Source of the DNA: Tissierellaceae bacterium HCP3S3_D8
Lineage (GTDB): Bacteria > Bacillota > Clostridia > Tissierellales > Tissierellaceae
Reading direction: 5' to 3'
DNA length: 24,000 nt
Assembly: GCA_052067355.1 (NCBI GenBank)
Contig: JBQHQH010000015.1
Coordinates: forward strand, 33,618 to 57,617
Below the pieces are notes generated by a model. The model did no database searches. It saw only the letters and a program-made list of their open reading frames with translations, and was not told the DNA's origin. Positions 8,780 to 20,312 of this stretch are shown here, piece after piece. The translations under genes and the position numbers were made by a program. Every line of letters starts with the position of its first letter. Position 1 is the first letter of the stretch.

Positions 8780-9406
8780 CTATTTTAAATTCCCCACAAT
8801 TTTAGTACCGTGAACTTCTCTTACTCCTGTCTTATTTACTATATCCATATAATTATCCTCGGTAACGCCTCCACCAGCTAATATAGTTATTCTATCATTG
8901 GAATAATTCACTAGTTCTTTCAAATTATCTAGATTATGGGTTGCACTTTGTGAACCACCTTTAGTTAGGACTCTATTTATTTTAAGCTCCACTAATCTAT
9001 CTAATGCAGACTTTTTATCCTCTATAGAATCAAATGCCATATGAAAGGTGAGCTTCATATCTCCTGCCTTATCTATAAGCCTCTTTATAGTAGGCTCATC
9101 TATTTTATTGTCAGCAGTCAAAGCACCTATGACTATTCCATCTACATTCATAGAATGACAGATTTCTACATCTTTTTCCATAATCCTAACTTCTTCTTCA
9201 TTGAAGACAAAGTTACCTCCTCTAGGACGTATTATTACAAATACAGGGATATTTAAGGATTTTTTAGACATCATAATAGTTCCTAGGCTAGGCGTAGTAC
9301 CTCCTTCTTCTAGATTATCACATAGTTCTATTCTGTCCGCACCTAAGTCGCAGGCTCTTTTAGCCTCTAAATAATTTCCTACACAAGCTTCTTTTAGTAT
9401 ACTCAT
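8780..9406 (-). CDS. cutC: CutC family protein (TIM-barrel; annotated as copper homeostasis, biochemical role unresolved)
   Basis: Motifs GADRIELC, EGGTTPSLG, IIRPRGGNF, TFHMAFD and RVLTKGG align with E. coli CutC. The start is moved to Met15 of the track ORF (ATG at 9406-9404), where AAGGAG lies 9 nt upstream. Confidence 0.8.
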   Translation of the reverse strand: MSILKEACVGNYLEAKRACDLGADRIELCDNLEEGGTTPSLGTIMMSKKSLNIPVFVIIRPRGGNFVFNEEEVRIMEKDVEICHSMNVDGIVIGALTADNKIDEPTIKRLIDKAGDMKLTFHMAFDSIEDKKSALDRLVELKINRVLTKGGSQSATHNLDNLKELVNYSNDRITILAGGGVTEDNYMDIVNKTGVREVHGTKIVGNLK

Positions 9407-9515
9407 TATCAATATCTCCTTTTCAATCTTAAATAAATTATACATCATGTGTATAATTATAAGTCATATATATATATTATCAAATATTAATTAGATTCTC
9501 GGATATAGATAGTCT

Positions 9516-12466: not shown

Positions 12467-12493
12467 TATTTGAGACAGTAAATGGAGGTGAAC

Positions 12494-12820
12494 ATGATGA
12501 AGAAGATATATCTATTTTGTGATCAAGGTATGAGCACAAGTATGTTGGCTAAGAAGATGCAGGATATTGGAGACAAACACAATTTACCTTTAGAAGTAAA
12601 GGCCTTTTCTATTAAGATATTGGAAAAGATATTAGAAGAAAAACATCCTGACTGTGTATTATTAGGACCTCAAGTTAGACATCTACTTGAAGATACTAAG
12701 AAGAGAGTAGAGAGCTATGATGTGCCAGTTGGAGTTGTTGACTCTGTTGATTATGGGATGATGGATGGAGAGAAAGTCCTAAAAAAAGCAATACTATTGA
12801 TGAAAAATTATAAAAAGTAG
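12494..12820 (+). CDS. PTS EIIB component, lactose/cellobiose/chitobiose family (copy 1)
   Basis: KIYLFCDQGMSTSMLAKKM carries the phospho-Cys loop of Lac/Cel-family EIIB. About 108 aa. RBS GGAGG lies at 12484-12488, so the track start at 12482 contains the RBS; ATG 12494 or 12497 is preferred. Confidence 0.9.
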   Translation: MMKKIYLFCDQGMSTSMLAKKMQDIGDKHNLPLEVKAFSIKILEKILEEKHPDCVLLGPQVRHLLEDTKKRVESYDVPVGVVDSVDYGMMDGEKVLKKAILLMKNYKK

Positions 12821-12831
12821 GAGTGGTAATA

Positions 12832-14172
12832 GTGCTTAAAAAACTAGAAAAGATTTTGATGCCTATGGCAGATAAATTGGGAAGGAATAAGGTCCTAGTT
12901 GCGATTCGTGACGGATTTTTAATATCAACTCCACTATTAATCGTAGGGTCTATCTTTTTATTGATAGCCAATTTTCCAATAACAGGTTGGTCTGAATTTT
13001 GGACACAATATCTAGGAGAAGGTTGGGAGATGTGGTTTATAAATGTATCTAGAGCGACATTTAGTGTCATTGCTCTATTGACCTGTATAGGGACAGGATA
13101 TGCTTATTCTAGAGAGATAAAGGGAGATAAGATTCAAGGTGCAGTAGTGGCATTTGTTTCATTTTTAATCTTGATGCCCACTATGATTCCATATGAAGGA
13201 GTTGAGGGGACAGGTAATGTAAGTGCATTAGGTTTTGAATATGTTGGATCAAATGGAATATTTTTGGCATTAGTAGTATCTATATTGTCAGTATCCATAT
13301 TCGATTGGGCTTATAAAAAGGGATGGACAATAAAGATGCCTAGTGGAGTTCCACCAGCAGTAGCAGACTCTTTTGCAGCTTTGATTCCAAGTGCAATAGT
13401 AATGTTTGTATTCTTCTTAACTAGAATTGTATTTGAATTTACACCATTTGAGACGGCTCACAATTTTATATATAAAGTATTACAAACTCCGCTACAAGGA
13501 GTGGGAAATACTTTAGGAGCACAGGTTGTCTATGGAGTAGCATCTACACTTTTCTGGTTCTTTGGGATAAATGGACCGGCAGTTACAAACGCAGTATTTG
13601 GACCAATAACCAAGATATTGACAATAGAAAATTTAGAGGCATTTCAAGCAGGATTGCCATTGCCTAATATATTTACTGATCCATTTTCCAACTTCTTTAC
13701 TGGATTTGGTGGTGGAGGAAGTACACTTTCACTAGTTATAGTTATGATATTATTTTGTAAATCCAAGAGAATTACTCAATTAGGTAAACTATCTATTGTA
13801 CCAGGTATCTTTGGAATCAACGAGCCTATAATATTTGGTCTACCAATAGTATTAAATCCTATATTGATAATTCCATTTATAGGGGTTCCTACAATGAATG
13901 TAATCCTATCTACTATAGCAACTAGAGCTGGGATTATACCGTACACTACTGGAGTAGCGTTGCCATGGACTACCCCAATAGGATTCTCAGGATATCTATC
14001 TACAGGAAGTCTATTTGCATCATTATGGCAGATAGGACTATTGATACTTGGATGTATATTCTATTATCCATTTATAAAAATATTGGATAAACAATATCTA
14101 AGGGAAGAAAGAGAAGCAGAGGATAATGAATCTGATATAGATGACATTTCTTTTGACGATCTATCTTTCTAA
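12832..14172 (+). CDS. PTS EIIC permease, lactose/cellobiose/chitobiose family (copy 1)
   Basis: About 446 aa and polytopic. Motifs AIRDGF, FWFFGINGP, FGGGGSTL and GINEPIIFGLPIVLNP are typical of ChbC/CelB/LicC-type EIIC. GTG 12832 is preferred (AGGAG at 12819-12823) and aligns with the Met start of copy 2. Confidence 0.9.
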   Translation: MLKKLEKILMPMADKLGRNKVLVAIRDGFLISTPLLIVGSIFLLIANFPITGWSEFWTQYLGEGWEMWFINVSRATFSVIALLTCIGTGYAYSREIKGDKIQGAVVAFVSFLILMPTMIPYEGVEGTGNVSALGFEYVGSNGIFLALVVSILSVSIFDWAYKKGWTIKMPSGVPPAVADSFAALIPSAIVMFVFFLTRIVFEFTPFETAHNFIYKVLQTPLQGVGNTLGAQVVYGVASTLFWFFGINGPAVTNAVFGPITKILTIENLEAFQAGLPLPNIFTDPFSNFFTGFGGGGSTLSLVIVMILFCKSKRITQLGKLSIVPGIFGINEPIIFGLPIVLNPILIIPFIGVPTMNVILSTIATRAGIIPYTTGVALPWTTPIGFSGYLSTGSLFASLWQIGLLILGCIFYYPFIKILDKQYLREEREAEDNESDIDDISFDDLSF

Positions 14173-14192
14173 TGAATTTAGGGGGTAAGACA

Positions 14193-14714
14193 ATGAAGAT
14201 TTTAATGATATTCGATCAAACACAAGCTGGATTAGGAGGCAAGGAAAATCCTGATTTACCTCTAGGTGGCAAGAGTATGCCAATAGGTTCTGCACATATG
14301 TTAGAACCCAATTTAAAAGAAGTAGATGGAAAAGTTGTAGCATGTCTATATTGTGGAGACGGATATTTTAAGAAAAATAGGGAAGAAGTAAAATTTAAGA
14401 TGGCCGCAATGGTAAAAAAGATCAATCCAGATGTAGTAGTATGTGGCCCAGCTTTTAACTATGCTGGATATGCAGAGATGTGTGCAGTATTAGCTCATGA
14501 GATAAATGAGAAGACAGATATCCCAGCTATTGCTGCCATGTCTAAAGAGAATGAGGAAACTATTTCAAAATATAAGGATTCAGTAAATATCGTCATCATG
14601 CCTAAAAAAGGCGGAACAGGATTAAGTGAATCTCTTAACAATATCTGTGTTCTTGCAAAGAAAATAGTAGATGGCGAAGATATAACTGATTACGCAGAAC
14701 AAATATGTTATTAA
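14193..14714 (+). CDS. Conserved hypothetical protein, about 173 aa; its N-terminus resembles that of GrdB/PrdB-type reductase B proteins
   Basis: The pattern MKILMIFDQTQAGLGGKENPDLP resembles the (V/I)xxxNQFFxxIGGEEKAD pattern I recall at GrdB N-termini. RBS GGGGG lies 7 nt upstream of ATG 14193. There is no in-frame TGA (no Sec). The function is not assignable. Confidence 0.45.
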   Translation: MKILMIFDQTQAGLGGKENPDLPLGGKSMPIGSAHMLEPNLKEVDGKVVACLYCGDGYFKKNREEVKFKMAAMVKKINPDVVVCGPAFNYAGYAEMCAVLAHEINEKTDIPAIAAMSKENEETISKYKDSVNIVIMPKKGGTGLSESLNNICVLAKKIVDGEDITDYAEQICY

Positions 14715-14716
14715 AA

Positions 14717-14755
14717 ATAAGGTAGCCTAAATTTTCTAGGCTACCTTATTGATTA
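14717..14755 (+). terminator. Strong hairpin, possible partial terminator or attenuator between the small protein gene and the M42 genes
   Basis: A perfect 13-bp stem ATAAGGTAGCCTA (14717-14729) / TAGGCTACCTTAT (14737-14749) with a 7-nt loop. The trailing sequence TTATTGATT is only moderately U-rich. Confidence 0.45.
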
Positions 14756-14779
14756 GAGAAGAAAGGAAGAGTGAAAAGT

Positions 14780-15856
14780 ATGAACATAGATGATAATACA
14801 TTGAAATTAGCACAGGAACTTACTCAAATAATAGGTGTATCAGGTAATGAGAGGTATATATCTAAAGCATTACAACAGCAATATAGGAGATATACAGAAG
14901 AAATAGTGTTTGACAATCTAGGTTCAGTATTTGCAGTAAAGAGATGTGGAAAGGAAAATGCTAAAAAAGTCATGATCTCAGGAAATATGGATGAGACTGG
15001 ATTTATGGTGAATGGGATTACAGATAACGGACTTCTTAAGATATTGCCATTGGGAACCGTATGGGATCAGACCATATTATCTCAGAGAATTAGGTTGATA
15101 AATGGAGAAGGTAAGGAGTTTAAAGGAGCCATAGTGACTAAGAATAGTGGCGAAGATAGATCTAAGATAATAGGCGTTGGCGAGATGTTTGCAGATATTG
15201 GTGCTAACAGTAAAGAGGAAATAAAAGAAATGGGTATAAAATTAGGAGATTCCATGGTCATAGATGGACCCTTTGAAGTACTAGCTACAGGCAAGAGGAT
15301 ACTTTCTAAAGCTTGGAACAATAGATATGGATGTATGCTTGGAATAGAACTATTAGAGGCATTAAAAGATGTAGAATTAGATGTGGACCTATATGTTGGC
15401 TGTACAGTTCAAAAAGAGATAGGCCTAAGAGGAGCAGAGACTGCTACAAATTTAGTAAAACCAGATTTAGGAATAGTTCTAGATTGTCTACAAGCCAATG
15501 ATATTGAAGGTAAAGAAGATGCAGTAGGTAAATTAGGAGAAGGACTATTGATAAACTACTATGATAAATCTATGATGCCTAATAGAGCATTGATCAGCCA
15601 TCTAGTAGATATATGTAAATCAAATGATATAAAGCACCAATACTATTATTCAATGAAAGAAAATGATGCTAAGTGGATTCACAAATTATTAGTAGGATGC
15701 CCAACTTTAATGGCATGTATCTGCACAAGAAATGTAAATACAAATAGCTCTATTATCGACATGGATGACTATCTATCTGCAAAAGAAGCGGTTATTAGGG
15801 TTATAAAATCTTTAGATACAGAGACTATTGATAGATTTAAAGCCGAAAATAGATAG
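14780..15856 (+). CDS. M42-family peptidase paralog with degenerate active-site/metal ligands (predicted non-catalytic)
   Basis: It aligns with the neighbouring M42 gene but has GNMDETG (canonical GHMDEVG), WNNRYG (WDDRIG), VQKEIGLRGA (VQEEVGLRGA) and RNVNTNS (RYMHSP). ATG 14780 is preferred over GTG 14771, which is too close to the RBS. Confidence 0.8.
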   Translation: MNIDDNTLKLAQELTQIIGVSGNERYISKALQQQYRRYTEEIVFDNLGSVFAVKRCGKENAKKVMISGNMDETGFMVNGITDNGLLKILPLGTVWDQTILSQRIRLINGEGKEFKGAIVTKNSGEDRSKIIGVGEMFADIGANSKEEIKEMGIKLGDSMVIDGPFEVLATGKRILSKAWNNRYGCMLGIELLEALKDVELDVDLYVGCTVQKEIGLRGAETATNLVKPDLGIVLDCLQANDIEGKEDAVGKLGEGLLINYYDKSMMPNRALISHLVDICKSNDIKHQYYYSMKENDAKWIHKLLVGCPTLMACICTRNVNTNSSIIDMDDYLSAKEAVIRVIKSLDTETIDRFKAENR

Positions 15857-15888
15857 GATATAGGATTAAGAGTATTGGAGGAGAGCTT

Positions 15889-16968
15889 ATGTATAATATA
15901 GATTTCCAGATGCTAAAGGAATTAAGCGAAGCTGATGGAATATCAGGTTGTGAAAGAGAAGTAAGTAGAGTCGTAAATAGATATTTTAGAGAATATGCTG
16001 ATGAGATCATGTATGATAACCTAGGTTCTATAATTGGACTAAAAAAAGGAAATGAAGATGGACCTAAGATAATGATTGCCGGACATATGGATGAAGTTGG
16101 ATTTCTAGTAAGACATATAGATGAGAATGGCTATATAAGGATATTGCCTGTAGGTGGATGGTGGGGACATGTACTTCCATCTCAAGAGATGAGGATAACT
16201 ACATCTACTGGTAAAAAGATATATGGAGTAGTGGGAAGTCGTGCACCTCATGGAATGCCTTCCGAGGAAAAAGAGAAAGTAATTAAGCCAATAGATCTGT
16301 TTATAGATATAGGAGTAGAAAACAGGGAAGAGGCTGAAGAACTGGGAATACAGATTGGAGATATGATTACACCTAATACAGAGTGTAGGATTATGAACAA
16401 TTCAAATTATATAGTGGGAAAGGCATGGGACGATAGAATAGGTGTAGCAGTAGCCATAGATGTCTTAAGACACCTTCAAAGCACTGAACATGATGCAAAT
16501 GTCTATGCTGTAGGTACAGTCCAAGAAGAGGTAGGATTAAGGGGAGCAAGAACAGCTACTCAAGTGATAAATCCTGATATTGGTATTGCACTAGATGTGA
16601 CAACTGCTAAGGATACACCTATGGATAAGGGAGACATAGGATTAGGGCGTGGTGTCATCTTGAGTATATTAGATGCAACGGCTTTAGCACATAGAGGACT
16701 CTTAAATGAGTTTGAACACATATGTGAAGATCTAAATCTAGATATAAATTATGATGCCATGACTGTAGGTGGAACCGATGCAGGTAATATTCACAAGACC
16801 TTTAGTGGAGTTATTACTATGACACTTTCTATTCCTACACGCTATATGCACTCTCCTAGATTGTTGATCCACCAAAGAGACTATATAGAGACTGTAGAAG
16901 TCTTGGCAGAATTCTGTAAAAGGCTAGATAAAGACCTATTGGAAAGGTTAAGAATAACTACTAAATAA
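15889..16968 (+). CDS. M42-family aminopeptidase (FrvX/YsdC/PepA-like, canonical ligands)
   Basis: Motifs IAGHMDEVGF, KAWDDRIGVAV, TVQEEVGLRGA, ALDVT and PTRYMHSP correspond to the His/Asp/Glu-Glu/Asp/His dinuclear site of M42 peptidases. RBS GGAGGAG. Confidence 0.85.
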   Translation: MYNIDFQMLKELSEADGISGCEREVSRVVNRYFREYADEIMYDNLGSIIGLKKGNEDGPKIMIAGHMDEVGFLVRHIDENGYIRILPVGGWWGHVLPSQEMRITTSTGKKIYGVVGSRAPHGMPSEEKEKVIKPIDLFIDIGVENREEAEELGIQIGDMITPNTECRIMNNSNYIVGKAWDDRIGVAVAIDVLRHLQSTEHDANVYAVGTVQEEVGLRGARTATQVINPDIGIALDVTTAKDTPMDKGDIGLGRGVILSILDATALAHRGLLNEFEHICEDLNLDINYDAMTVGGTDAGNIHKTFSGVITMTLSIPTRYMHSPRLLIHQRDYIETVEVLAEFCKRLDKDLLERLRITTK

Positions 16969-17090: not shown

Positions 17091-17202
17091 CTAATTAGAA
17101 AGAATTTAGATACGATATATACGTATAATTGTCGTATTTAATAAAATATAGGAACTAGATATTCATAGATAAAACTTATCGTTCTCAATGGAGGTAATAC
17201 AG

Positions 17203-18327
17203 ATGGAACAAATCTTAAATGATAAAATTGATGAATATAGAGAAGAATTATTGAAATCTATTGTGGAAGTGGTAAATATACCCAGTATTAAAGGAGAGTC
17301 AAGTGACGATGCACCTTTTGGGAAAGAGCCAAAGAGAGCATTGGAGAAAGCCCTTGAAATAGCAAGAAATCTAGGATTTCAAACTCACATTGTAGACAAT
17401 TGTGTTGGATATGCTCAATACGGAGAAGGGGAAGGCTATATAGGAGTTGTAGGACATCTAGACGTGGTAGATGAAGGAGAAGGATGGAAGTTCCCTCCAT
17501 TTAGTGGGCATATCGAAGATGGGAAGATGTATGGAAGAGGTGTATTAGACAATAAAGGGCCAATCATGTCGGCTCTCTATGGACTATATGCTGTTAAAGA
17601 ATCTGGTCTAAAGATAAACAAGCCAGTAAGGATTGTATTTGGGACTAACGAAGAAACTGGATTTGGTGATATACCTCACTATTTAGAAAAGGAAAAACCA
17701 CCGATAATGGGATTTACTCCAGACTGTAAATATCCAGTAGTATATGGAGAAAGAGGAAGGGCAAATATACAGTTTCAGATAGAATATAATAGCGAGAACT
17801 ATGAAGATATGACTAGAGAATTTTTTAGCTTTTTAAATACCTATATCCTTTCTAGTAAGAGCAATGGAGATAGGTTGGGAATAGACTTTAGTGATAGTGA
17901 ATTTGGTACTATGGAGATGAGGAATTACAAGATGGATGTAGAGGAATCTAAACTACTCTTTAACCTTAGCCTGAGTTATCCAGCCATAGTGAATATTGAT
18001 GAAATAGTGAAGAGGATAGAGTCAAAACTATCCGAGAATATAAAGTTAAACTTGCTGTTAAATTATGATCCAGTTAAATTTGAGAAAGACTCTTTCTTAG
18101 TTAAATCTCTACAAAAGGCATATGAAGATGTGACAGGATTAGATGGTACTCCTGTAACTACTACAGGAGGGACATATGCAAAGATAGTTCCCAATATTGT
18201 ACCCTTTGGTCCATCTTTTCCTGGACAGAAGGGGATAGCTCATAATCCAAATGAGTATATGGACATAAGTGATATTATTTTAAATGCAAAGATATTTGCT
18301 CAAGCAATATATAATTTAGCAAAATAA
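17203..18327 (+). CDS. M20-family dipeptidase, PepV/Sapep-like
   Basis: Motifs VGHLDVVDEGEGW, GRGVLDNKGP, FGTNEETG and GFTPDCKYPVVYGERG match PepV-type M20A. At about 374 aa it seems shorter than the roughly 460-470 aa I recall for PepV. ATG 17203 is preferred because GGAGG (17190-17194) lies inside the track's 5' extension. Confidence 0.75.
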   Translation: MEQILNDKIDEYREELLKSIVEVVNIPSIKGESSDDAPFGKEPKRALEKALEIARNLGFQTHIVDNCVGYAQYGEGEGYIGVVGHLDVVDEGEGWKFPPFSGHIEDGKMYGRGVLDNKGPIMSALYGLYAVKESGLKINKPVRIVFGTNEETGFGDIPHYLEKEKPPIMGFTPDCKYPVVYGERGRANIQFQIEYNSENYEDMTREFFSFLNTYILSSKSNGDRLGIDFSDSEFGTMEMRNYKMDVEESKLLFNLSLSYPAIVNIDEIVKRIESKLSENIKLNLLLNYDPVKFEKDSFLVKSLQKAYEDVTGLDGTPVTTTGGTYAKIVPNIVPFGPSFPGQKGIAHNPNEYMDISDIILNAKIFAQAIYNLAK

Positions 18328-18348: not shown

Positions 18349-19308
18349 ATGAGTTGGTCTTTTATAGCTACATGGAGGATGGCATTGGAGGGTATCCAAG
18401 AGGGAGCTAAGTTATTAGAAGACAATGGAAGTTGTGGAGATGCTGTGGAGGCAGCTATAAAGATGGTAGAGGATTTTCCATATTATAAATCTGTAGGATA
18501 CGGTGGGCTTCCCAATGAAAATGGGGAAGTAGAACTAGATGCAGCCTATATGGATGGGGATAGTTTATCTATTGGAGCTGTTGCAGGAATCAAGGACTTT
18601 AAAAATCCCATAAGCATAGCTAGAAAGCTGAGTGAAGAGAAATTCAATTGTTTTTTAGTAGGTCAAGGAGCAGAGGAATATGCTCATAAAAATGGATTTG
18701 AAAGGGTAAATATGCTTACAGACAGAGCTATTATCCACTATAAGAATAGACTGAAGGAGATCAAGGAGAAAGAACTTACTCCATATTCTGGACATGACAC
18801 TGTGGGAATGGTTGCACTAGATTTGAATAATTCCATGGCAGCTGGCACATCTACAAGTGGCCTATTCATGAAGAAAAGAGGTAGAACAGGAGATTCTCCA
18901 CTATCAGGTTCAGGATTTTATGTAGATAGTCAAATCGGAGGAGCAACAGCCACTGGATTAGGAGAAGATATTATGAAAGGATGTATCTCCTATGAAATTG
19001 TAAGGCTTATGAAAGAAGGATATACACCTCAGGAAGCAGCAGATAAGGCAGTACTTGAACTGAATAATCTGCTTATCAGTAGGAGAAAGGAAGCAGGAGA
19101 TATCTCTGTTGTATGTATCAATAATAAGGGAGAATTTGGAGTAGCTACAAATATAGAGGGATTTTCCTTTGTAGTTGCTACTGATAAATTATCTCCAACT
19201 GTATATGTGTGTTCAGTAGATAATGGCAAGACCACATATAAAGCTGCAAGTAAAGAATGGTTAGATAATTATATGAAGACTAGAACTGCACCACTAGAGT
19301 TAAAATAA
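18349..19308 (+). CDS. Ntn-hydrolase of the glycosylasparaginase (aspartylglucosaminidase) type, Asparaginase_2 family
   Basis: The autoproteolysis/nucleophile motif GHDTVGMVALD (Thr151, codon 18799-18801) is followed by TSGLFMKKRGRTGDSPLSGSGFY and ATGLGEDIM. The N-terminus FIATW...DAVEAA...SVGYGGLPNENGEVELDAAYMDG parallels human AGA (VNTW...DAVE...SVGFGGSPDE). It lacks the IAIHGGAG start of isoaspartyl peptidases such as IaaA. Confidence 0.75.
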   Translation: MSWSFIATWRMALEGIQEGAKLLEDNGSCGDAVEAAIKMVEDFPYYKSVGYGGLPNENGEVELDAAYMDGDSLSIGAVAGIKDFKNPISIARKLSEEKFNCFLVGQGAEEYAHKNGFERVNMLTDRAIIHYKNRLKEIKEKELTPYSGHDTVGMVALDLNNSMAAGTSTSGLFMKKRGRTGDSPLSGSGFYVDSQIGGATATGLGEDIMKGCISYEIVRLMKEGYTPQEAADKAVLELNNLLISRRKEAGDISVVCINNKGEFGVATNIEGFSFVVATDKLSPTVYVCSVDNGKTTYKAASKEWLDNYMKTRTAPLELK

Positions 19309-19343: not shown

Positions 19344-19667
19344 ATGGAAGGTATGGAATTGATGAATTTTCAAATAATAAGCAATGTAGGAGATGCAAAA
19401 TCATATCTATTTGAAGCTTTAAAGGCTTCAAGAGAAGATAGATTTGAAGATGCTGAAAAACTTATTAAAGATGCAGATAAGAGTTTAGAGAAAGCCCATG
19501 AGATCCATGTAGAGTTATTACAAAGTGAGACACAGGGGCAACCTATTGAGATATCTCTTTTATTGATGCATGCAGAGGATCAGATGATGACTACAGAGAT
19601 GTTTAGAGATATCACTAATGAGATGTTATTGATGCATAAGAAATATTCAAATGTGGATAAAGAATAA
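19344..19667 (+). CDS. PTS EIIA component, lactose/cellobiose/chitobiose family
   Basis: 107 aa, predicted helical, with IISNVGDAKS and the phospho-His region LLLMHAEDQMMT typical of ChbA/LicA/LacF-type EIIA. GAGGG lies 8 nt upstream of the ATG. Confidence 0.85.
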   Translation: MEGMELMNFQIISNVGDAKSYLFEALKASREDRFEDAEKLIKDADKSLEKAHEIHVELLQSETQGQPIEISLLLMHAEDQMMTTEMFRDITNEMLLMHKKYSNVDKE

Positions 19668-19920: not shown

Positions 19921-19985
19921 AAGAACTGAAGAGAATAGAGTTTAAATGATAAAGAATAGAGAAAGACTATAGCTAGGAGGTGAAT

Positions 19986-20312
19986 ATGATGAAGAAGATA
20001 TATCTATTTTGTGATCAAGGCATGAGCACAAGCATGTTGGCTAAGAAGATGCAGGATATTGGAGACAAACACAATTTACCTTTAGAAGTAAAGGCCTTTT
20101 CCATTAAGATATTGGAAAAGATATTAGAAGAAAAACATCCTGACTGTGTATTATTAGGGCCTCAAGTTAGACATCTACTTGAAGATACTAAAAAGAGAGT
20201 GGCAAGCTATGATGTGCCAGTTGGAGTAGTTGATTCAGTTGATTATGGAATGATGGATGGAGAAAAGGTTCTTAAAAAAGCAATATTATTGATGAAGAAT
20301 TACAAAAAATAG
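19986..20312 (+). CDS. PTS EIIB component, lactose/cellobiose/chitobiose family (copy 2)
   Basis: The protein is identical to copy 1 except for one residue (E to A in KKRV[E/A]SYD). RBS AGGAGG lies at 19975-19980; the track start GTG 19980 overlaps the RBS, so ATG 19986 or 19989 is preferred. Confidence 0.9.
   Translation: MMKKIYLFCDQGMSTSMLAKKMQDIGDKHNLPLEVKAFSIKILEKILEEKHPDCVLLGPQVRHLLEDTKKRVASYDVPVGVVDSVDYGMMDGEKVLKKAILLMKNYKK

Follow-up and report, generated by a model that had tools for sequence, protein, structure and literature searches.

Why would a bacterium keep, directly in front of a complete M42 aminopeptidase gene, a second full-length M42 gene that lacks most of the residues of the catalytic site? 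This question is raised by a locus of Tissierellaceae bacterium HCP3S3_D8 (assembly GCA_052067355.1), which we analyzed in a window of 24,000 nucleotides from contig JBQHQH010000015.1 (positions 33,618 to 57,617 of the forward strand; coordinates below are those of the window). Two adjacent genes on the + strand are at issue. The first, M42-A (14780..15856; hereafter A), encodes a YtoP-type M42 homolog whose metal site is degenerate, a putative pseudo-peptidase identified by Pfam match, alignment, AlphaFold2 (AF2) model and Foldseek search. The second, M42-B (15889..16968; hereafter B), encodes a YsdC-type M42 aminopeptidase of 359 amino acids with the full catalytic set, as assessed by Pfam match, codon check and AF2 model. 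We favor, with a probability of roughly 0.55, the reading that A serves B as a partner with no catalysis of its own, in an operon for the salvage of N-acetylglucosaminyl-asparagine (GlcNAc-Asn) and glycopeptides that resembles the ega locus of Enterococcus faecalis; the contact between the two proteins is something we infer.

The metal site of an intact M42 homolog

A matches the Pfam family PF05343 (Peptidase_M42) from end to end (E 1e-74, 251.7 bits against a cut-off of 23.2), as does B (E 1e-102, 340.3 bits, same cut-off), and the two proteins are 34% identical across 358 residues. The AF2 model of A, computed as a single chain, has a predicted local distance difference test (pLDDT) score of 83.4 and a predicted template modeling (pTM) score of 0.86. 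The models of A and B were compared with YtoP, YsdC, PhTET2 and 5ds0; that of A superposes on M42 structures with template modeling (TM) scores of 0.84-0.93, and both models display the two-domain M42 arrangement of a catalytic domain and a PDZ-like dimerization domain. As modeled, the M42 fold is retained in A.

The top structural match of A in Foldseek is chain A of PDB entry 9A5R, Bacillus subtilis YtoP (41% identity, TM 0.93), with YsdC behind it at 36%. For B the order is reversed, with YsdC (9A5R chain B and 1VHE; 45% identity, TM 0.93) ahead of YtoP at 38%. Together with the tree described below, these matches assign A and B to two old M42 subfamilies, YtoP-like and YsdC-like. A preliminary description of this DNA, made from the sequence alone, had called the genes tandem M42 paralogs; they are indeed both full-length M42 genes and adjacent, but they did not arise by recent tandem duplication.

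Translation of A probably begins at ATG 14780 (358 amino acids), since its homologs are 358 amino acids long and a ribosome-binding site (AAAGGAAG, about 14762-14769) lies some 10 nt before this ATG; GTG 14771 is the first possible start (361 amino acids). Residue numbers of A used here are counted from GTG 14771, and numbers counted from the ATG are lower by 3.

Ligand positions in A were assigned with a HMMER alignment to PhTET2 (1y0r), counted residue by residue by hand. In PhTET2, zinc is chelated by H323 (site M1), H68 (site M2), E213, D235 and the bridging D182, and E212 is the acceptor of the water proton (PMC8993905). A has N72 at the position of H68 (H68N; codon 14984-14986), N183 at that of D182 (D182N; codon 15317-15319), K215 at that of E212 (E212K; codon 15413-15415) and N323 at that of H323 (H323N; codon 15737-15739). 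Both histidines and the bridging aspartate are thus gone, which removes three of the five metal ligands, and a lysine replaces the general-base glutamate. The two carboxylate ligands are kept, E216 for E213 (codon 15416-15418) and D238 for D235 (codon 15482-15484), as are D74 and E75. A further change affects the family-invariant G-G-T loop, which is replaced by K-E-N at 15656-15664, before the invariant Asp299. B, numbered on its own sequence, has all five ligands and the general base, E213 (H66, D181, E213, E214, D236 and H321).

The preliminary description had listed five motif pairs that differ between A and B (GNMDE/GHMDE, WNNR/WDDR, QKEIG/QEEVG, LDC/LDV and RNVNT/RYMHS), all of which are present in the two sequences. 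It had also taken the substituted positions to be ligand positions, which the alignment to PhTET2 and the published residue list confirm, and had stated that three of five ligands and the general-base glutamate are lost from an open reading frame that is intact and of full length, in agreement with the alignment and the end-to-end Pfam match.

A single base separates each of the four substituted codons from its canonical form. Sequencing errors are excluded, because the closest relative carries the same substitutions in an independent assembly (89% amino acid identity, synonymous divergence (dS) 0.51). This relative comes from contig CABMKH010000005.1, which is also the nearest match for the locus as a whole (87-96% protein identity). 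The contig is filed as Varibaculum timonense (Actinomycetota), a label that is probably wrong, as its gene content is Clostridia/Tissierellia-like.

With three ligands and the base lost, canonical two-metal hydrolysis by A is very unlikely. Judged from its residues, A is an M42 family homolog but not a canonical metallopeptidase. Both proteins bear the database name ‘M42 family metallopeptidase’ and both score under every NCBIfam equivalog cut-off; for A, the name overstates what the protein can do.

Pairing with B and erosion of the site across genomes

How general is this arrangement? A locus scan with one genome per prokaryotic species yielded 80 loci, 23 of which carry the string RDD, EIIB, EIIC, GrdB-like, (M20), A, B, (second GrdB-like), glycosylasparaginase, EIIA/M20, where EIIA, EIIB and EIIC denote enzyme II components of the phosphotransferase system (PTS). 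In all 23, A lies immediately upstream of B, mostly with a gap of 5-55 nt, and B is canonical in each of the 22 complete copies (that of locus L003 is cut short at its N-terminus). Of the 23 A copies, 19 are degenerate; they belong to Clostridium species, Tissierella, Romboutsia, a Sarcina metagenome-assembled genome and an Enterococcus. The other four, all from Erysipelotrichaceae (L013, L014, L028 and L031), are canonical. Three further degenerate lineages, recovered in a protein search, could be traced to contigs; they show the same context of EIIC, GrdB-like gene, A and B, and both complete B copies among them are canonical. Every solitary A-like gene retained in the data set is canonical (56/56); these genes come from Staphylococcus, Erysipelothrix, spirochaetes and others. 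No other B ortholog was found among 400 genomes of the same class, all matches being at most 43% identical, a sample that shows only that the locus is rare.

We rejected the idea that degeneracy accompanies a tandem arrangement as such. A control set of 20 further tandem M42 arrays was taken from the same class, most of them conserved trios whose genes overlap. Each of its 56 genes is canonical, and so is a trio in the genome of the window itself. This trio, on contig C2 (110825-113723; L082-L084), consists of overlapping genes with the residue sets HDDEEDH, HDDEEEH and HDDEEDH. Trios of its type with the same pattern occur in 17 of the 20 sampled arrays of the class, which hints at a widespread M42 module of three paralogs akin to TM1048-1050.

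The protein search brought up 120 relatives of A. In a maximum-likelihood tree, A falls within a clade of at least 46 sequence clusters (support of 99 in the Shimodaira-Hasegawa-like approximate likelihood ratio test, SH-aLRT), and the second histidine is absent in every member. Many members also lack D182, E212 or H68, and the losses form a stepwise series from HDEEDN through HNEEDN to NN(K/N/H)EDN. In a second tree, all paired A proteins form one clade (99) and all B proteins another (100), with the four canonical paired A proteins sister to the degenerate ones; the A-B pair therefore predates the loss of the site in A.

Some 51 alignment columns do not vary among canonical M42 relatives. 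Of these, H72, D183, E215, H323 and the G-G-T loop are hit hardest in the degenerate clade, which has also lost the S/T that follows D235; E216 is mildly relaxed and about nine other columns only mildly, and the Gly, Asp and Arg residues of the scaffold are invariant. On the tree, H323 was lost at least 3 times, with at least 10 state changes and 7 different residues, D182 changed at least 7 times, and E212 was lost at least 3 times. Across lineages, H323 is replaced by N/K/E/Q/D/S/G, E212 by K/N/H and D182 by N/S/Q. That the replacement residues vary by lineage points to a loss of constraint at the metal site and not to the fixation of a new chemistry. Conservation of the degenerate copy in orthologous loci, a point raised in the preliminary description, thus holds for the copy itself, which forms a supported clade, is under purifying selection and always stands before B, but not for the exact substitutions, which differ by lineage.

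The A lineage also has invariant signature residues, Y264, K266, M269, P270, W302 and C310, which are already present in the still-canonical paired A proteins. C310 was the exception among the cysteines checked when we considered, and dropped, a new Cys-based metal site in A: those after NRYG, after the ligand Asp and before R320 occur in canonical YsdC or PepA as well (by-eye check), whereas C310 occurs only in the paired-A lineage, where the still-canonical members have it too. In the four canonical paired A proteins, both Gly of the family-invariant G-G-T loop are already gone, and their rate is about twice that of their B partners. From this Gly loss and faster rate, functional asymmetry between the partners may predate the loss of the metal site.

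The ratio of nonsynonymous to synonymous substitution rates (dN/dS), estimated for 11 locus pairs, is 0.07-0.20 for A and 0.02-0.13 for B; the value for A is about twice that for B and within the range of other genes of the operon. All 23 genome loci, like dozens of metagenomic clusters, carry an uninterrupted, full-length open reading frame for A. A is maintained by purifying selection and is not decaying, and selection on the rest of the protein makes it nearly certain that A does something. With its catalytic residues gone, its gene intact and its sequence under purifying selection, A is a pseudoenzyme, predicted to be inactive from the loss of ligands and base.

Genes around the pair and a candidate substrate

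On gene evidence, the two paralogs are predicted to be made together. They are adjacent on one strand and are separated by a spacer of 32 nt (15857..15888, + strand) in which GGAGGA (15877-15882) precedes the start of B by 6 nt; nothing resembling a terminator was found between the two genes. The same transcription unit includes, upstream of A and also on the + strand, genes for a Lac/Cel-family PTS EIIB (12482-12820) and EIIC (12823-14172). Next comes the gene of a GrdB-related protein without selenocysteine (14172..14714, + strand; NF041545), which is always directly upstream of A in related loci and for which no relative was found among solved structures. The string IIB-IIC-GrdB-like-A-B is conserved in related loci. 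A downstream unit on the + strand encodes a Sapep/PepV-type M20 dipeptidase (17188-18327), a glycosylasparaginase (Asparaginase_2; 18349-19308) and a Lac/Cel EIIA (19344-19667). The window also encodes a PRD/Mga-type regulator with a detached EIIA_2 domain and an RDD membrane protein.

The Asparaginase_2 protein matches bacterial glycosylasparaginase with an E of 7e-62; against isoaspartyl peptidases the value is about 1e-38. For glycosylasparaginase to act, both the alpha-amino and the alpha-carboxyl group of the asparagine must be free, and for this reason the M42 and M20 peptidases are predicted to trim imported Asn-glycopeptides to GlcNAc-Asn.

The ega locus of E. faecalis serves the use of GlcNAc-L-Asn. 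It comprises a GrdB-like gene beside genes for a glycosylasparaginase, a dipeptidase and the Lac/Cel components EIIB and EIIC (Combret et al., Res Microbiol 175:104169; described in PMC11549559 and PMC11976118). All of these component types are present in the window, where the Lac/Cel PTS, glycosylasparaginase, dipeptidase and GrdB-like genes make up an ega-like locus; the likeness is to ega as its published description gives it. In that description ega has no M42 genes and has a GntR regulator, whereas the window has the A-B pair, the PRD/Mga-type regulator and a second EIIB/EIIC pair. By this comparison, the locus looks like an expanded relative of the ega system, and a glyco-asparagine context for A and B is supported by the presence of a true glycosylasparaginase and by the resemblance to ega as described.

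Several other features of the locus deserve mention. A perfect 14-bp hairpin (14716..14750, + strand) lies between the GrdB-like gene and A, followed by the ribosome-binding site of A. Its predicted RNA fold has an energy of -20.4 kcal/mol (z -4.9), with only a weak T-run after it. Its possible roles are partial termination, transcript processing or a stabilizing effect that sets the ratio of transporter to peptidase transcript. The M20 dipeptidase is 379 amino acids long, compared with models of 447-466 positions, and matches them in two stretches, so that its middle (lid) domain seems partly missing. The EIIB proteins encoded at 12482-12820 and 19980-20312 are almost identical, with one E/A difference; divergence between the two EIIC partners is far greater. 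Two identical EIIB proteins also exist in E. faecalis, but in its cel (cellodextrin) locus (PMC11976118). A CutC-family gene on the - strand (8780-9448) is divergent and lies upstream of the regulator.

Related loci vary around the pair. In the group of C. baratii, C. nitritogenes and Clostridium sp. Ade.TY (L007, L009, L010 and L012), another GrdB-like gene, diverged from the first (35-42% identical), stands after B, giving the order GrdB-like, A, B, GrdB-like. In another locus (L089:8366-12694), genes for an M19 dipeptidase, an M3 oligopeptidase and an MlrC-like protein adjoin the A-B pair, which fits a peptide-type substrate.

A probable partner without catalysis

What, then, does A do? Physical association with B is, in our assessment, its most likely function, at somewhat better than an even chance, given the strict ordered pairing with an always-intact B and the precedent of YtoP and YsdC. 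These two proteins are listed among the B. subtilis paralog pairs with heteromeric contact in in-cell crosslinking mass spectrometry (O'Reilly et al. 2023, PMC10090944). PDB entry 9A5R is an integrative model of their heteromer. A and B come from the same two M42 subfamilies, which are thus known to contact each other; A and YtoP, and B and YsdC, are reciprocal best structural matches, and the tree placement agrees. The difference is that Staphylococcus-type solitary YtoP relatives are canonical, whereas in the window pair one partner has lost its metal site. To our knowledge, the B. subtilis ytoP and ysdC genes are neither adjacent nor part of a PTS operon.

The preliminary description had also noted that hetero-oligomeric tetrahedral (TET) complexes are known in archaea, and this is correct. 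Dimers of PhTET2 and PhTET3 from Pyrococcus horikoshii build defined tetrahedral heterododecamers of 12 subunits, with a change in peptide processing (PMC4220976). Both of these subunits are active, with different specificities, and their assembly needs cobalt, whereas A has lost its metal site. We know of no dead subunit in the PhTET2/PhTET3 system. The two cases together give mixed M42 particles a precedent, including for the two bacterial subfamilies considered here.

We propose that A and B, cotranscribed from genes 32 nt apart, would assemble as a mixed dimer or TET-like particle in which only the sites of B cut. The PTS would import GlcNAc-Asn or short Asn-glycopeptides, B and the M20 dipeptidase would trim the flanking residues until the amino and carboxyl groups of the asparagine are free, and the glycosylasparaginase would then cleave the sugar-Asn bond. 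A might contribute as a scaffold, by changing the chamber or pore to suit bulky glycan-bearing substrates, or by binding substrate through its lineage-specific residues. The preliminary description had suggested a structural or specificity-modifying subunit of this kind, which our results support as a reading; a part in admitting glycosylated peptides, also suggested there, would be one such contribution. We infer the A-B contact, its stoichiometry, the substrate and the contribution of A.

A more specific version, which we hold only tentatively, makes A an obligate non-catalytic subunit of an A/B TET-like particle of defined stoichiometry, in which the eroded pocket together with Y264, K266, M269, P270 and W302 would bind or gate glycan-bearing peptides for the sites of B. 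If true, this would be the first pseudo-subunit of a self-compartmentalized aminopeptidase, and a case of repeated active-site loss in one member of an already established pair.

Several considerations weigh against a partnership of A with B. The contact is deduced from gene pairing and from homologous pairs. Metal binding is reported to drive assembly of the M42 dodecamer (PMC7948507, citing Dutoit 2019). Engineered equivalents of A N72 and N323 exist in the TmPep1050 mutants H60A, H307A and H60A/H307A (PDB 5NE7, 5NE8 and 5NE9), whose entries contain two chains each, like the dimeric form 5NE6. These are laboratory versions of an active enzyme, whereas A is natural and selected and also lacks the bridging aspartate and the general base. 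From metal-controlled dodecamer formation and the two-chain mutants, A, being metal-poor, may not enter a 12-mer and perhaps forms only dimers or heterodimers. The signature residues Y264, K266, M269, P270, W302 and C310 could equally serve a function that is independent of B, and the early-branching clade members, which lack only the second histidine, might keep weak activity.

Some of these points speak for a role of A that is non-enzymatic and exercised without B: it could bind the imported glyco-amino acid as a receptor or act as its chaperone, or it could work together with the GrdB-like protein, the tail of EIIC or the PRD regulator. Under such a role one can accommodate the invariance of the signature residues and their presence in the still-canonical paired A proteins, the possible block to dodecamer entry by metal loss, and the GrdB-like gene being as constant a neighbor of A as B is. 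Yet a degenerate A was never seen without B immediately downstream, the gene order is fixed with short gaps, and YtoP-type and YsdC-type paralogs are in contact in B. subtilis (PMC10090944), so that we regard a B-independent role as unlikely.

It is more doubtful still that A remains an enzyme, whose retained Glu/Asp would act together with Asn/Lys and with a single metal or none, perhaps on another bond of the glyco-amino acid. The retention of E216, D238, D74/E75, H304 and R320 is in keeping with such an activity, as is the fact that the earliest-branching members of the clade have lost H323 alone. A newly evolved site would be expected to be fixed, however, and the former ligand and base positions vary within the clade; the GGT loop on the substrate side has gone as well, together with the S/T that follows D235. 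That A is a slowly decaying pseudogene, or a sequencing or assembly artefact, is effectively refuted by the survey of paired loci and by dN/dS values far below 1: although each of the four substitutions is one base from a canonical codon, the same residues recur in an independent assembly at dS 0.51, the reading frame is intact throughout, and good ribosome-binding sites precede both genes.

A non-catalytic partnership of A with B would fit a concept known from other metallopeptidase families, in which full-length homologs without catalytic residues take protein-protein or scaffold roles (PMC11266112). That 2024 review of pseudo-metallopeptidases covers mostly eukaryotic M12 and M14 cases, and no M42, M18 or clan MH members. 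We found no description of an inactive M42 homolog in the literature searched, a limited collection. Within that literature, A would be a pseudoenzyme partner in a family with known hetero-particles, in which dead subunits were not previously known.

Work on M42/TET peptidases has treated them as homo-oligomers in which every subunit is active, with two heteromers known, PhTET2/3 and YtoP-YsdC. If our reading is true, a conserved pair of a dead and a live subunit, found in Clostridia, in Erysipelotrichaceae relatives and in an Enterococcus, would extend pseudoenzyme biology to M42 and offer a natural system for the coupling of metal binding, assembly and activity in TET particles. The locus also flags the extra peptidases in GlcNAc-Asn salvage loci of gut Firmicutes as a functional module, which bears on the use of host N-glycoprotein remnants.

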